Shown here: piece after piece, positions 29,341-61,355 of the stretch
How the letters are laid out: the number at the start of each line of letters is the position of its first letter
Numbering within the stretch: position 1 is the stretch's first letter
Assembly: GCA_965263355.1 (NCBI GenBank)
Contig: CBDHHL010000056.1
Span: forward strand, 2,304,001-2,368,000
Length of the DNA: 64,000 nt
DNA from: Leptolyngbyaceae cyanobacterium
GTDB lineage: Bacteria > Cyanobacteriota > Cyanobacteriia > Phormidesmidales > Phormidesmidaceae
Direction of reading: 5' to 3'
Notes under the pieces: model-generated
Database searches by the model: none
What the model saw: the letters and a program-made list of their open reading frames with translations, nothing else
Told to the model about the DNA's origin: nothing
Program-made: the position numbers and the translations under genes

Positions 29341-30399
29341 CTAACCTTGCCGACCGGTACGTTCTAGACCTAATTGAATCAACTGATCCACAAGCTGAGC
29401 AAACTCAATCCCAGACGCTTGCCATAGCATAGGATACATACTAGTCGCAGTGAATCCTGGAAAAGTATTGATTTCATTGATGAGTACTTCGCCAGTACTC
29501 TCTACATAGAAAAAATCTACCCGTGACAAACCAGCCCCATCAATGGCTTGAAATGCTTGAACAGCCTGCTCCTGAATAGTGGTTACCACATCACTTGGCA
29601 GCGGTGCCGGAATCGCTAAATCGGCTTGACCACTGGTGTACTTGGTCTCGTAGTCATAGAAATCGGCATCAAAGCTAATTTCACCAATGACTGATGCCTT
29701 CGGATTGTCATTGCCCAGAATTGCACATTCCACTTCACGGGCAATGACACCAGCTTCCACAATAATGCGGCGATCATAACTGGCGGCACTATCAAGGGCT
29801 GCCTCTAGTTCTTGACGATCCTTAGCTTTGGCAATACCTACAGATGAGCCCAAGTTAGCAGGTTTTACAAAGCATGGATAGCCGAGGTTATCTTCTATCT
29901 GATCGCATAGCTTCGGAAAAACGCAGGGATTGGAATAGACTTGCGATCGCAACACCTCGATATAGTTCACCTGGGGCAATCCCACCTGTGCAAACGCAGA
30001 CTTCATCGCCAGCTTATCCATACCCACTGCCGCAGCCAAGACGCCACAGCCCACATAGGGAACCTGCATCAGCTCAAACAGTCCCTGAATCGTTCCATCC
30101 TCACCATTGGGTCCATGGAGCACAGGGAACCAGATATCCACATCAGTTGCTAACTTCGGTAGGCGATCGATAAGTGATATTTCATCCGTCCCAATCACTA
30201 ATGGCTTACCGGAAGTCAATACATCCTGGGCATCCATAACCCACACACCATCCTTACGGATATAAACGGGTAGGATTTCATACTTCTCAAAATTCCCCTT
30301 GAGGCTTAACCCATGGGCAATCGCCTGGGCCGAACAAATAGATACCTCATGCTCTCCAGAACAACCACCAAACAATAAGCCTACGCGCATTTTTGCCAT
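29341..30399 (-). CDS. ddl: D-alanine--D-alanine ligase
   Basis: [36 protein letters not shown]. Confidence 0.96.
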
Positions 30400-30590
30400 C
30401 AAGTCGGCCCCTTTTTACCTAAAAAATAAATTAATGCTGCTTTAGAGACACAACCAAGTCAACGTTCCCCTTGGGGCGTATTGGAGCATCTACTCCATAA
30501 GTAAAAAGCAACACTAAAAAGAATATTAAGAGGTTAACCGATCACAGGCTTAATCTATTCATCACAGGAGTTCTCAAAAGATTACTGGGC

Positions 30591-30649
30591 AAAAAAAACT
30601 CCTAAGCCCTAAAAGGGCTCAGGAGTCAGACATCAGGGTGCATCTACCA
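30591..30649 (-). ncRNA. NsiR1-like sRNA copy 1
   Basis: UGGUAGAUGCACCCUGAUGUCUGA, then hairpin and U8; TCCGGA at 30679-30684. Confidence 0.75.
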
Positions 30650-30767
30650 GCTAACTGTCCACGGCATTCACCCTTACTTCCGGACAGAACAAAAATTAGC
30701 ATGCACATTCTCATAATCCTTTATTTGACTCAACGACTGGACTCCAAATATGACCCTAAAAATTTTG

Positions 30768-30826
30768 AAAAAAAACTCCTAAGCCCTAAAAGGGCTCAGG
30801 AGTCAGACATCAGGGTGCATCTACCA
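30768..30826 (-). ncRNA. NsiR1-like sRNA copy 2
   Basis: same sequence as copy 1; TCCGGA at 30856-30861. Confidence 0.75.
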
Positions 30827-30943
30827 GCTAACTGTCCACGGCATTCACCCCTACTTCCGGACAGAACAAAAATTAGCGTGCACATTCTCACAATCCTTTA
30901 TTTGACTCAACGATTGACTCCAAATATGGCCCTAAAAATTTTG

Positions 30944-31002
30944 AAAAAAAACTCCTAAGCCCTAAAAGGACCCAGGAGTCAGACATCAGGGTGCATCTAC
31001 CA
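30944..31002 (-). ncRNA. NsiR1-like sRNA copy 3
   Basis: two stem substitutions that retain G-U pairing; TCCGGA at 31032-31037. Confidence 0.75.
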
Positions 31003-31139
31003 GCTAACTGTCCACGGCATTCACCCCTACTTCCGGACAGAACAAAAAATCAACTGGCATTCAATCATTGGCATCACTTACCAAAAGAAAGCATCAAGAT
31101 TTTAGAGACCCCGTGAAAAAAACAACATGACCAGAGATA

Positions 31140-31514
31140 ATGCCATTGCACCCTCGACCTTACTCAGGATCTGTGAAATATTTTTTCTTGTCCGACGGCT
31201 GGACCACTGGCAGAGTATGGGAGTTTGGCGGCCTATGGAATGAAATCGCCTGGCAGCGCAAACCAATCATTAAACAGTTAAGGCTTTACATCGAAGAAGC
31301 CACCGAAAAGTTATGGCTATATCAAGTTGAAGACGACGTCTTAATGGTCGAAGTTCGGCCTGAAGATGACACGGCGATCCCCATTGGCCAAGTTGTTTTA
31401 AAGCGACTGATAACCGCTGATCAAGTGATCGAAAAGCTATGTGAAAGTAGTCATACTGCTATCACTGCTAACTTAGAGGCTAACCTTCCTAAGCAAGCTA
31501 GTTATCCCTTATAG
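31140..31514 (+). CDS. hypothetical protein
   Basis: YFFLSDGW..GRVWEFGGLW and IGQVVLKRLI look like conserved cyanobacterial motifs; start may be downstream GTG. Confidence 0.7.
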   Translation: MPLHPRPYSGSVKYFFLSDGWTTGRVWEFGGLWNEIAWQRKPIIKQLRLYIEEATEKLWLYQVEDDVLMVEVRPEDDTAIPIGQVVLKRLITADQVIEKLCESSHTAITANLEANLPKQASYPL

Positions 31515-51748: not shown

Positions 51749-54370
51749 ATGTCACGGGATGCACTGATCGTCGGAATTAATAAATATCAGAAACTGCCTG
51801 AACTGACGGCAGCCGGAAAAGATGCAGAGGGCATAGCCAGCCTGCTCGAAACCCATGGCGACTTTCGCGTGCGCAGGTTACCTGAGATCATTCAAGATCA
51901 ACGCCCACAAATCGGCCAGCAAAGTTTTGTTTCCACTCAGCAACTAGAAAACAGCTTAGTCCGTCTGCTATTACCCAAAGGAGAGCACATCCCGGAGGTT
52001 GCCTTTTTTTATTTCTCAGGTCATGGCCTACAAAGAGAAATAGGCATACGAGAAGGATATTTAGCAACTAGCGATACCCAACCAGAGTCTTCTAACAGTG
52101 GATTATCACTCTCCTGGCTACGCCGTCTCATCAGACATAGTCCCGTCCGTCAAATTATTATTATTTTAGACTGTTGCCATAGTGGAGAGTTCCTTTGTCT
52201 AAAGGATGAAACATGGCAGGGGGCTGATGGACACAGCTACCTATTTATAGCAGCCTCTCGCGAGTATGAAGAAGCCTATGAATCACTCAACAGTGACTAC
52301 AGCGTACTTACCCAAGCAATCATCTCTGGATTGCTACCTCAAAATAAACACAGTGGTAGAGTTACAACCGCCGATCTAGTCGCTTCCATCACTAATCGAC
52401 TCAGCAATGAAATTCAACAGCCTTTATTTGAACAGGGCGGCAGTGAAATTGTTATTACCCGACAAGGAGAACACCCATTACCAAAGTCAGACAGTCTTTC
52501 TATAATCTCTCGTCTAAAGCAATATAGTTTTAATTTCTGCCCCTATCGAGGCCCTCATCCTTTTGAGGAAAAGCATACTGATTATTTCTTTGGTCGAGAG
52601 GAGTTGATTCAATCAATCCTAACGTCGTTACAGCAACACAATCTTTGTACCCTAATCGGCGCTTCAGGTAGCGGGAAGACATCTTTGCTGCGCGCTGGTA
52701 TTATCCCTCGTATCTCTGCAGGCCATGAAATTTCGGGCAGTGAGTATTGGCTAGTCCGCTATATGACTCCAGGTGCACAGCCCTTGAGAACACTAGCGTC
52801 AGTCTTTACCATTGCTAATCAAGCAGTCGACATTGCTAAACAGCTATGGCAAGCTGAGCAACTTCTACGACAAGATTGCTCTGCATTAGTCAACTTAGTG
52901 ACAGCAGCACTGCTTAAACAACCTGGAGCGACGAAATTTTGGCTAGTTATCGATCAATTTGAAGAACTCCTCGCGCCAACACCTGATCCTCATATTCAGC
53001 AGGACCGCAACTTGGTGATTGGGGCACTAGTTAAAGCACTGCATTGTCCCTCCATACCTCTAGGAATCATTATTAGTCTGCGAGCAGACGCCATCGACCA
53101 TCTCATAAACTATAACGATTTATTTTCCTTGGTAGAGAATCATCAGATCGTTATTCCCCCAATGAAGTATCAAGCTATTCGAGATGTGATTGAAAAACCG
53201 GCTGAAAAGCTAGGACTTAAACTAGACCCTTATCTGGTGCACAATTTAACGCTTGATCTGACCGGTGCCCCAGGTGAATTAGCCTTGCTACAGAGCACGT
53301 TATATGAGCTTTGGCAATATCGTACCCCAATGGCTCATAGCACAGGTACACCTTGTTTACTCTTGGATAGCTACATAAAACTAGGACGTCTGCCGCAAAT
53401 AATTACAAATAGAGCAACAGAATTGTATCAGTCACTGCCATCAGACGAACAAGCTGCTGCTAAACGAATATTTCTTTCGCTATGTGAGTTAGGAGAAGGT
53501 CATCTCGATAAATGTCGTCAAGCTCATAAATCTGAATTGATCAATCAGCAATTTCCCCGTGACCTGATTGAACGGACACTAAAGAAACTGGTTAAGGCTC
53601 GACTGATAGTCTTAGATAAACCACAATTAGCCTCACAAACCCAGGGAAAAAAAATAGCTGACGTAGCTTGGAAAACAAGTCATCACAAAAAAGCTAAACA
53701 TACCAGTGTAATGGCACAATTGCCAACAGCATTGATGGTATCCGAAGACACCGTTGAACTAGCCCATCAATCTCTAATATCGGATTGGTCCTTACTACGC
53801 CAGTGGCTACAAGCTAACCGTAAAACCCTGCGACACCAACGAGATATTGAAGCGCGTGCCTGGATTTGGCACCAGCGTGGAGAAACGCAATGTTCAGACT
53901 ATTTACTTGGACAACAATACTTGAAAGATGTGAGTCAGTTCTTGACACATGACTCACAAAAGCTATCAATTTTGGCCCAAAGATTTATGCGCCTGAGTCA
54001 ACGTACTGTTACCTACCAACGTTGGCGGGCCCGAGGGATAGCAGTCTTGTTCCCCTTAGCCATCATCACGGGAATGACTCTGTCCTTGGTACGTCAACAG
54101 CTGACTCCCACATGGCGTGTCAATATGGTGCCTACAACATGGGTCAAGGCTCAACTACCGACACGCTGGGGAATATTGGGAACCAAACATTTAGCAATCG
54201 CTTCTCAGATTTTGACCTTTAAGCGCCAGCATTCGCATATTCCACTCCAGGAGTTGTCTATTCACCAGTTAGTCGATCTAATGACGCCTGACGTTATGAT
54301 AGTTAACTCAGCGTCATTGCCGGATGGAGCTGGCTCTTGGGTGAATGATGGTGACGTCAGTAAACCATAA
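51749..54370 (+). CDS. caspase (peptidase C14) + STAND NTPase (nSTAND1-like) + TM protein
   Basis: ALIVGIN, FSGHG and LDCCHSG dyad; CPYRG, FFGRE, GASGSGKTS, IDQFEE; C-terminal TM. Confidence 0.88.
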   Translation: MSRDALIVGINKYQKLPELTAAGKDAEGIASLLETHGDFRVRRLPEIIQDQRPQIGQQSFVSTQQLENSLVRLLLPKGEHIPEVAFFYFSGHGLQREIGIREGYLATSDTQPESSNSGLSLSWLRRLIRHSPVRQIIIILDCCHSGEFLCLKDETWQGADGHSYLFIAASREYEEAYESLNSDYSVLTQAIISGLLPQNKHSGRVTTADLVASITNRLSNEIQQPLFEQGGSEIVITRQGEHPLPKSDSLSIISRLKQYSFNFCPYRGPHPFEEKHTDYFFGREELIQSILTSLQQHNLCTLIGASGSGKTSLLRAGIIPRISAGHEISGSEYWLVRYMTPGAQPLRTLASVFTIANQAVDIAKQLWQAEQLLRQDCSALVNLVTAALLKQPGATKFWLVIDQFEELLAPTPDPHIQQDRNLVIGALVKALHCPSIPLGIIISLRADAIDHLINYNDLFSLVENHQIVIPPMKYQAIRDVIEKPAEKLGLKLDPYLVHNLTLDLTGAPGELALLQSTLYELWQYRTPMAHSTGTPCLLLDSYIKLGRLPQIITNRATELYQSLPSDEQAAAKRIFLSLCELGEGHLDKCRQAHKSELINQQFPRDLIERTLKKLVKARLIVLDKPQLASQTQGKKIADVAWKTSHHKKAKHTSVMAQLPTALMVSEDTVELAHQSLISDWSLLRQWLQANRKTLRHQRDIEARAWIWHQRGETQCSDYLLGQQYLKDVSQFLTHDSQKLSILAQRFMRLSQRTVTYQRWRARGIAVLFPLAIITGMTLSLVRQQLTPTWRVNMVPTTWVKAQLPTRWGILGTKHLAIASQILTFKRQHSHIPLQELSIHQLVDLMTPDVMIVNSASLPDGAGSWVNDGDVSKP

Positions 54371-58934: not shown

Positions 58935-61355
58935 ATGGGTGTGGATAGTGCGATCGAATTTACTGACTCTTTGCTCTATGAAAAAACGGGGCAGCATCTC
59001 AGTGATCTGCAATGCTGTATTCTGCAGCAGGTGTGGGGAGGTAAAACCTATCGTGCGATCGCAACCATCGCTGGCTACAGCGAAGGGCATGTTAAAGATG
59101 TTGCCTCCCAGCTATGGCGAATACTCTCCGATATTCTAGGGGAACGCATTACCAAAGGTAATTATCGTTCACGCTTGGTGTACTGGTTAAAGCGGGCGAA
59201 ACGGAAAATGGTCCACGTCGCCGAAGAAGCATGGCCCCGAGCAAATACAGCCAACCTATTAACCCGAAGCACCCTGCATAAGGTTGAACCCCAGCCTATC
59301 AACCCTCATTTTATTGGCCGTGCTAACGCTATTGAGGCCCTCACCAACCTCAGCGCCCAGGGGCATAAAATCATCTTGATTCAAGGCGAAGGAGGATTAG
59401 GCAAAACTACCCTGGCCCAACATTATTTACGCCAAACCACATTCGATGTCGTTTTAGAATGGCATATTGCCCAGGAAACCTCAAGCTTGACCGTCGTTGA
59501 CCACATTCTCGACGAATGGTTACGTCAAGATTTTAATGACGAACCAGGCCAGGATTTGAGCATTAGCCTCAGCCGATTGAAACGTCATCTTAAACAACAA
59601 CGAGTTGGCATTCTGATTGACAATCTTGAACCCGCCCTCGACGGCAATGGTCAGTTTGTCCCTGAAGCTTTCTGTTATATAGAACTACTCAAGCTCTTAG
59701 CGGATTTTTCAATTCAGACAACAACATTAATCACCAGTCGCGATCGCCTCTGCGAACCTGGCATCAAAACCTATCACTATCGATTAACTCGACTCACTCA
59801 AACAGATTGGAAACAGTGCTTTACCTATTATCAGCTGCGCTTACCAAGGACAGATGAGATTCTGCACCATTTACACCGCGCTTATGGTGGCAATGCCAAG
59901 GCAATGGAGATTTTATGTAGCACAGTTCAAACAGATTTCAATGGTGATCTAAAGGCTTATTGGCAAGCCTATGGCGCAGATCCATTAGCAGAAATTGATC
60001 TTAAGAATCTAGTCATTAGCCAGATCAATCGCTTGCAATGCCTGGATCCAATTGCGTATCAGCTCCTCTGTCGCCTCAGCTGTTATCGCTACCAAACTAT
60101 TGCCTCCCTCTCATTACCAGCCATTCTCGCCCAATGCAATAGTCCCGATAGTCAGCGAGCCATTGCCTCCCTCCGGAATCGCTCACTGCTTGAGTTGGAA
60201 AACAGACAGTACTGGCTCCATCCAGTAATTAGAGCTGTAGCTATTGAACGACTGCGACAGAGTGACCTTTGGTACGCAGCGAATCGAGTCGCAGCTCACT
60301 ACTGGACTAATAGTATAGAACTTTTAACAGAACTATTAGATGCACAAAAAGCATTGGAAGCCTACTACCACTATGTTGCAATCGATGAATATCAGGCAGC
60401 TGCCCAAGTGTTGCTAAAAAGTCGTCACAACCAATGGCAACAGTTTTTACCGCTGGCCAGCAGCTTGTATCGCATGGGTTTATTGCAACCAGTGAGCACC
60501 TTAATTTTAGAGGTATTATCCCATTTAGAGTCGGTGTCTGCCCCCTCCTCTCAAGTAAGTGAACTTCGTAATATCCTCGGTGATATTTATTGGATCACAG
60601 GAGACATTAATCAAGCCATTCAATGTCAAGAGAATGCAATCTCAAACACACAACAACATTTAGCAACTCTCGACAAAATTGACCGACTGAATCACTATTA
60701 TCTGCAAATGCTCAATATCGATTCACGCTTAAGTCTGGGTCTGTATGCGATGGATCTATGGGAGTTAGAACGGGCTGAAACAGCTTTTAAGACCGTGATT
60801 TCTCTTGGTCAGGGCACACCCCATCAAGCCTGGGCAGACAAAGCAACCGTTGCGTTAGCGTTAACCTACGCGTTTCAAGATAAACCCAAACGTGCCTCAA
60901 TGTTGGCAACTGACTGCCTTCACAAATTTACCGAGCCCAGCCAACAATCTGGAAGACTGGCCTACTTTATTCAACTCTTAGGACAAACCTACGGTCAGCT
61001 AGGCAAATGGGCGCAAGCTAACACACTATATCAACAAGCCCTCAATTTTGCTGAAGCAGGGCATTACTTACAGGTAAAAGCCAAGGCTCTCAATGGTTTA
61101 GCTACTATTGCCCGCAATTATCAACAGATGGAGCAAGCCTTAGACTATCACTATCAAGCGATTGAACTATTCACTGACATTGGGGCAAAGTGCGATTTGG
61201 CCAATGCCTATGTTGAAATAGGCCATACCCATGTGAGTCTGAAGCAAACAGACATTGCTCACCATAATTGGCAACGAGCATTAGCACTCTATGCCGACAT
61301 TCACGCCCATAAACAAGTCGGCAAAATCACTGACCTACTCAGCCTGATTGAATAG
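58935..61355 (+). CDS. HTH + NB-ARC-like STAND NTPase + TPR protein
   Basis: N-terminal HTH (KTYRAIATIAGYSEGHVKD), GEGGLGKT, ILIDNLE, C-terminal TPRs. Confidence 0.85.
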   Translation: MGVDSAIEFTDSLLYEKTGQHLSDLQCCILQQVWGGKTYRAIATIAGYSEGHVKDVASQLWRILSDILGERITKGNYRSRLVYWLKRAKRKMVHVAEEAWPRANTANLLTRSTLHKVEPQPINPHFIGRANAIEALTNLSAQGHKIILIQGEGGLGKTTLAQHYLRQTTFDVVLEWHIAQETSSLTVVDHILDEWLRQDFNDEPGQDLSISLSRLKRHLKQQRVGILIDNLEPALDGNGQFVPEAFCYIELLKLLADFSIQTTTLITSRDRLCEPGIKTYHYRLTRLTQTDWKQCFTYYQLRLPRTDEILHHLHRAYGGNAKAMEILCSTVQTDFNGDLKAYWQAYGADPLAEIDLKNLVISQINRLQCLDPIAYQLLCRLSCYRYQTIASLSLPAILAQCNSPDSQRAIASLRNRSLLELENRQYWLHPVIRAVAIERLRQSDLWYAANRVAAHYWTNSIELLTELLDAQKALEAYYHYVAIDEYQAAAQVLLKSRHNQWQQFLPLASSLYRMGLLQPVSTLILEVLSHLESVSAPSSQVSELRNILGDIYWITGDINQAIQCQENAISNTQQHLATLDKIDRLNHYYLQMLNIDSRLSLGLYAMDLWELERAETAFKTVISLGQGTPHQAWADKATVALALTYAFQDKPKRASMLATDCLHKFTEPSQQSGRLAYFIQLLGQTYGQLGKWAQANTLYQQALNFAEAGHYLQVKAKALNGLATIARNYQQMEQALDYHYQAIELFTDIGAKCDLANAYVEIGHTHVSLKQTDIAHHNWQRALALYADIHAHKQVGKITDLLSLIE

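Follow-up and report, generated by a model that had tools for sequence, protein, structure and literature searches.

What does a tandem array of a heterocyst-associated small RNA do in a cyanobacterium that probably forms no heterocysts? The question is raised by three short repeat units in a 64,000-nucleotide stretch of DNA from a Leptolyngbyaceae cyanobacterium, all of which is called the window here. NsiR1 is still presented in reviews as a heterocyst RNA (PMC6596454; PMC4030482), and its targets in Nostoc are given as hetF, to which it is antisense, and alr3234 (PMC9045159). What is new in the present analysis is the prediction of patU as a target, for which the support is mixed; the presence of NsiR1 outside heterocyst formers is already in print.

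The array, its neighbours and its host

A scan of the whole 64-kb window with Rfam returned three matches above the gathering score, all of them to NsiR1 (RF02399, gathering cut-off 39 bits) and all on the minus strand: copy 1 at 30591..30649 (58.2 bits, also backed by terminator scan and folding), copy 2 at 30768..30826 (58.2 bits), and copy 3 at 30944..31002 (56.1 bits). An earlier note on this DNA had described three units of about 177 bp, each with a minus-strand RNA of about 59 nt, as NsiR1 homologues, and both the description and the assignment are borne out by these matches. The units are tandem direct repeats arranged head-to-tail, with start-to-start distances of 177 and 176 nt. Copy 1, as a 59-nt small RNA (sRNA) gene, consists of a conserved 18-nt 5' end, a linker, and an intrinsic terminator with its stem at about 30598-30626 on the minus strand (terminator scan, fold). 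The RNA of copy 2 is identical, and that of copy 3 differs at two positions in the terminator hairpin, with pairing kept both times as a G-U wobble. The hairpins comprise 11-12 bp followed by a U-run (fold z = -4.9 and -2.7), much as the note had read them (11 bp), and the 5' part of each RNA is weakly structured. Common to all three units is a core that begins about 45 nt ahead of the RNA and reaches through the U-run, whereas the spacer is common to copies 1 and 2 only; identity of the third unit with the others stops at about 31047, that is, just past its promoter, as had been noticed before.

In sequencing run X1, possibly the source sample of the window, the repeat unitig has a depth of 24.5 compared with about 9 for the flanking and junction unitigs (~2.7x), which fits three real copies. 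Across 23 orthologous copies, drawn from the window and from close relatives, nucleotides 1-17 are invariant; the terminator stem varies, yet 94.9% of its cells are paired, with 16 double changes (0/500 shuffles), a significance that is inflated by kinship among the sequences. Given scores above the cut-off, the conserved 5' end and intrinsic terminator, a length of about 60 nt, the tandem arrangement, and a DIF1 promoter of its own for each copy, the three units are, by sequence, genes of the known small RNA NsiR1, and the array is an ordinary member of the family. Two other candidate features were discarded: a 106-aa open reading frame at 30638-30958 (+), taken as spurious and derived from the repeats, and a sigma-70-like promoter at 31113-31141, at chance level (1 found versus 1.1 expected).

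The genomic context is not that of the Nostoc hetF array, as the note had also stated. Downstream, on the same strand, lies ddl, for D-Ala-D-Ala ligase (29341..30402, minus strand; PF07478/PF01820). Upstream, a divergent gene for a conserved hypothetical protein (31140..31514, plus strand; called at 124 aa, with relatives at about 112 aa) begins 138-170 nt from copy 3. The latter protein matches no Pfam or NCBIfam family; it has 1152 homologues, the best named ones from Leptothoe and Leptolyngbyaceae at 76-84% identity. This gene is widely conserved in cyanobacteria and syntenic with ddl and a TolC-like gene. In relatives, one to four nsiR1 copies lie upstream of ddl on the same strand at 25 of 27 loci (the best 27 of 80 matching genomes). 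Each of five close relatives carries four to six copies above the cut-off, spread over three to four loci, so the window array is probably one of several nsiR1 loci in its genome; no copy was found within 1.5 kb of hetF in 5/5 of these relatives.

This arrangement invites a reading in cis, in which the units would form a HetZ-driven leader or attenuator for ddl, and thus for cell-wall synthesis, or act antisense to the 5' UTR of the hypothetical gene in the manner of nsiR1.1 on hetF. The recurrent position upstream of ddl and the short distance to the divergent gene speak for it, but a strong terminator ends every unit, the same 18-nt 5' end is found beside many unrelated genes, and the close relatives distribute their copies over separate loci. 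Moreover, for a leader there would be little point in duplicating units in tandem when each of them is terminated. We therefore consider action in cis very improbable.

The window Ddl is 84% identical to that of Leptothoe spongobia, 71% to those of Microcoleus and Leptolyngbya PCC 6406, and 70% to those of Nostoc and Calothrix; in a 28-row tree, it falls in a 12-row clade with L. spongobia (support 100/99), apart from both Nostocales. Neither of the marker proteins of the window, Ddl and the hypothetical protein, groups with Nostocales (an SbcC-like protein, present in 1/5 genomes, was uninformative as a marker). Leptothoe is not known to form heterocysts. The host, grouping with Leptothoe, is thus likely non-heterocystous, in agreement with what the earlier note had supposed. 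That the host is a heterocyst former after all, or that the array was acquired recently or is no more than a silent relic, appears to us extremely improbable: the Ddl placement opposes the former, and synteny of the locus across the clade, together with compensatory changes in the terminator, largely refutes the latter. Elsewhere in the window are genes for a caspase-domain STAND NTPase (nSTAND1; 51749-54370, plus strand) and an NB-ARC/TPR protein (58935-61355, plus strand).

We infer the hetR, hetZ and nif content of the host from the genomes of its relatives. Close relatives possess hetR, hetZ-patU, patX-like and hetF genes; nifK exceeded the cut-off in 5 of the 12 closest genomes, was fragmentary in 2, and was not found in 5. 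In L. spongobia, which carries six nsiR1 copies, only HetZ-related genes were found and hetZ proper was not, in a draft that may be incomplete. A patX-like frame with four to nine RG(S/T)GR repeats lies upstream of hetR in five close relatives, preceded in four of the five by a promoter with the -35 variant TCCTGA.

Promoters and distribution of nsiR1

Directly upstream of each RNA, on the minus strand, is a predicted sigma-HetZ/DIF1 promoter: 30650..30684 for copy 1 (with TCCGGA at 30684-30679), 30827..30861 for copy 2, and 31003..31037 for copy 3, the latter two identified by sequence match to the consensus. The layout is the same in all three units (TCCGGA, a 17-nt spacer, TGGA, 8 nt, and T at +1), and three of the eight TCCGGA hexamers in the window are placed at -35 of the three RNAs. 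The published sigma-HetZ consensus, TCCGGA-N16-17-TGNA-N7-9-T, in which the DIF1 motif is read as the -35 box (PMC13342950), is matched exactly by 3/3 window promoters. According to the supplement of the same paper, the consensus was built from nine promoters, an nsiR1 promoter among them, and there is a HetZ ChIP peak on nsiR1; for a leaky hetZ mutant, however, the supplement gives nsiR1 expression as ‘up’, which counts against sigma-HetZ dependence. Additionally, the window promoters carry G at -11, which is absent from the substitutions reported to be tolerated in the patS promoter (PMC13342950).

More broadly, a -35 box that deviates at no more than one position precedes 80/80 nsiR1 copies from records with non-Nostocales titles and 81/82 copies from Nostocales, against a background of 1.7%, and a terminator-like end follows 79/80 and 80/82 scorable copies, respectively. 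We are confident, if short of certain, that the three window units are NsiR1 genes with promoters of the sigma-HetZ type; from these promoters, the units would be expected to be transcribed and to depend on sigma-HetZ. A variant -35 box, TCCTGA instead of TCCGGA, occurs in 24/80 of the non-Nostocales copies versus only 2/82 of the Nostocales copies, and may possibly be read by a HetZ paralogue.

In a sample of 150 genomes spread evenly over the cyanobacterial phylum, NsiR1 exceeded the cut-off in 42 and hetR was present in 43, with 42 having both, an overlap whose significance is inflated by the relatedness of the genomes. The sole hetR genome without NsiR1 lacks hetZ as well, and its hetR is the most divergent. 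Among the 42 NsiR1-positive genomes, 41 have a hetF orthologue and 9 lack nifK; hetZ exceeded its cut-off in 28/30 and 29/30 genomes searched. When split by HetF score, 22 of the 42 would be Nostocales-like and 20 not. NsiR1 hence tracks HetR rather than heterocysts across the sampled cyanobacteria (42/42), which supports the suggestion of the note that its role is linked to the former.

When exact matches to the 18-nt 5' end were sought in the genome collection, 5/64 of its parts yielded 123 loci, of which 64 belong by record title to non-Nostocales cyanobacteria, 25 to Nostocales, and 34 are unclear; a lone non-cyanobacterial match, with neither promoter nor terminator, was attributed to chance. 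Multi-copy loci are common in non-heterocystous genomes. At 23/82 long loci hetF is the divergent neighbour, also in Symploca, Crinalium and Phormidesmis, which makes the nsiR1-hetF link older than Nostocales; the linkage is absent from the clade of the host.

Four close relatives further contain a divergent nsiR1 paralogue below the cut-off (33-36 bits; L205:1501-1551, L206:1501-1549, L209:1501-1550, L210:1501-1549). It retains nucleotides 3-18 and the terminator, has a sigma-70-type -10 box and no TCCGGA, and adjoins a conserved gene of about 120 aa without NCBIfam family. Its GGG-N5-CCC motif, found in 1.2% of random 60-nt windows, is a form of the HetR box (PMC7377430), and the paralogue may therefore be a copy driven directly by HetR.

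Homologues outside Nostocales have indeed been reported before, as the note had anticipated. Table S3 of PMC4734099 (2016) records NsiR1 homologues in 38/89 genomes, 27 of them heterocystous and 11 not; section 15 of that paper does not discuss this. A 57-nt NsiR1-like RNA of Limnospira indica PCC 8005, RNA162, was described in 2021 as linked to the hetR locus and among the radiation-regulated RNAs (PMC8400943).

The patU start as a predicted target

The 18-nt 5' end served as the seed in a blind duplex scan against 778 ORF starts. Its best start-codon matches outside the nsiR1 loci are two patU starts, at -24.0 kcal/mol (one match within a coding region scored -24.4), with hetR (30 loci), ddl and the hypothetical-gene groups at background rank. 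At the patU start, the seed pairs with a promoter spacer that also holds the Shine-Dalgarno (SD)-like sequence of patU. At 32/32 hetZ-patU junctions, a TCCGGA box is found some 22 nt ahead of the patU start, and corresponds to the published sigma-HetZ promoter of patU5. The -10 box of this promoter overlaps the patU start codon at 32/32 and 26/29 loci (L222-L225, L238-L265, L268-L296).

Duplex energies of -15.5 or below were obtained at 23/32 junctions, comprising 9/11 Nostocales-like and 14/21 others (6 of these 14 being one identical site). As a control, 6/284 other SD-bearing starts reach -15.5 and none reaches -21. The 20 unique patU sites average -16.1 versus -7.0 for shuffled seeds, with 0/2000 shuffles reaching the mean. 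In the family of the host, where 26 of 29 further junctions were readable, the site passes in 7/7 further junctions of the Leptothoe clade and, including two from the 32-junction set, in 9/9 closest relatives; in these nine it is non-coding, and its variation includes G-U wobbles. Contigs of the runs that contain the window cover the hetZ-patU junction of a relative at a summed depth about that of the window in X1, which suggests that the host has this junction; of the differences from the relative listed there, three lie in or beside the patU site and none in its 7-nt core.

The same material can be read otherwise. NsiR1 could be the same HetZ-driven, trans-acting sRNA but have its real targets among other mRNAs, or in a protein, for instance PatR; the patU match would then be a by-product, given a seed that resembles an anti-SD sequence and a junction that is conserved for its functions as promoter, ribosome-binding site and coding sequence. 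Outside the Leptothoe clade, in the same family, the site passes in only 2/19 junctions and is weak in 17/19, yet nsiR1 lies at ddl in most family genomes fetched; since it is weak in 9/32 junctions of the phylum-wide set as well, the patU site alone cannot explain the invariant seed. When accessibility is included, the energies are modest in the clade of the host, with -8.7 to -12.7 for the closest relatives against a background of -6.4 +/- 2.8 (5th percentile -11.6) and 5/9 passing, and the best Nostocales-like sites are in the top 1% of the background. The site is also conserved for other reasons, since it doubles as sigma-HetZ promoter spacer and SD-like sequence and in many cases holds the final codons of hetZ. 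A 15-letter pattern of the patU-site class occurs in 58/150 genomes, NsiR1-lacking ones included, so that position rather than rarity carries the argument for patU. Finally, NsiR1 is enriched in PatR CLIP, and neither of the known Nostoc targets is patU.

Against a by-product, the pairing extends over 15-16 bp, past the SD core, the best patU sites surpass all 284 SD-bearing controls, and the pairing persists where the site is non-coding. Other candidates fared poorly: no credible trans site was found in the hetF leader of five close relatives, and no ATCAGG site near the starts of three hetP-like genes in two close relatives, a check that covered the relatives' genes. Looking genome-wide for other bulged targets led to the inspection of 30 loci, of which 6 are the patU start and the other 24 have no recurrent start-codon site.

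Patterns of loss are equivocal. The AGG core of the site is missing in 6/6 genomes with an early-stopping patU frame and present in 22/26 with an intact one, as would be expected if a target site was lost, but also if an unused ribosome-binding site simply decayed. PCC 7120 has a split patU and two changes that weaken the pairing site, where the start is that of patU5, a gene reported to be dispensable and to play no part in differentiation (PMC7377430). A split patU is not unique to that strain, because the frame stops within 36 codons in 6/32 cases. Taken together, the complementarity leaves patU a plausible candidate for a real NsiR1 target, at somewhat under an even chance, and the reading with other targets is likewise a serious but tentative one.

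A possible feedback loop and known systems

The explanation that we favour is that HetZ, a developmental sigma factor, would transcribe every nsiR1 unit separately from the promoter of that unit, and that the invariant 5' end of NsiR1 would pair in trans with the hetZ-patU mRNA where ribosomes bind to translate patU. HetZ probably has PatU3 as its anti-sigma factor (PMC13342950); blocking patU translation would therefore lower the anti-sigma factor PatU and leave more sigma-HetZ free, which in turn would make more NsiR1. This positive feedback loop would reinforce HetZ/HetR activity in a likely heterocyst-free filament, the tandem copies raising the dose of NsiR1, and transcripts from the internal patU promoter, which start past the pairing site, escaping it. 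In Nostoc, more NsiR1 advances differentiation (PMC9045159); the direction of the loop fits the Nostoc phenotypes, but alr3234 already explains them. As a whole, we hold this explanation to be nearly, though not quite, an even proposition.

We would propose more cautiously still that RNA-based positive feedback on sigma-HetZ through PatU silencing predates heterocysts. Were this so, the loop may have been missed because PCC 7120, the model strain, has a split patU and a decayed site. Should patU prove to be a target, current models of the core patterning circuit would lack an RNA feedback loop. The accessible text of PMC13342950, PMC7377430 and PMC11298460 describes no sRNA control of patU, nor does the accessible literature on NsiR1 with patU3 or hetZ, PMC11797042 included, state patU as a target, in a search that was not exhaustive. 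The function of HetR, HetZ and their partners in heterocyst-free filaments is an open question, and the role of the circuit there has been called a mystery (PMC11298460). Of the known reporters of this circuit, an nsiR1 promoter is the earliest and the shortest; hence, hidden differences in cell state among non-heterocystous and often non-nitrogen-fixing filaments could readily be followed with the window units.

Compared with NsiR1 of Nostoc/Anabaena sp. PCC 7120 (RF02399; PMC9045159; PMC4030482), the window RNAs are alike in their length of about 60 nt, the same 5' 17-18 nt, an intrinsic terminator, and an organization as tandem copies with their own DIF1 promoters. They differ in number (3 copies versus 12 in PCC 7120), in location (between ddl and the hypothetical gene, whereas the Nostoc array is upstream of hetF with one copy antisense to the hetF 5' UTR), in the linker, which pairs with alr3234 in Nostoc and has another sequence in the window, and in the likely non-heterocystous host. 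For Nostoc NsiR1, transcription is described as HetR-dependent, nitrogen-induced and cell-specific. With the cases of PMC4734099 and PMC8400943, the array shares the occurrence of an NsiR1-like RNA outside heterocyst formers; as far as the accessible text of those papers extends, they do not treat promoters, phylum-wide co-occurrence with hetR and hetZ, or targets. With the core circuit of sigma-HetZ/PatU and HetR/PatX (PMC13342950; PMC7377430; for Leptolyngbya BL0902, PMC11298460), the array has in common that all three of its units carry the consensus promoter of that circuit.
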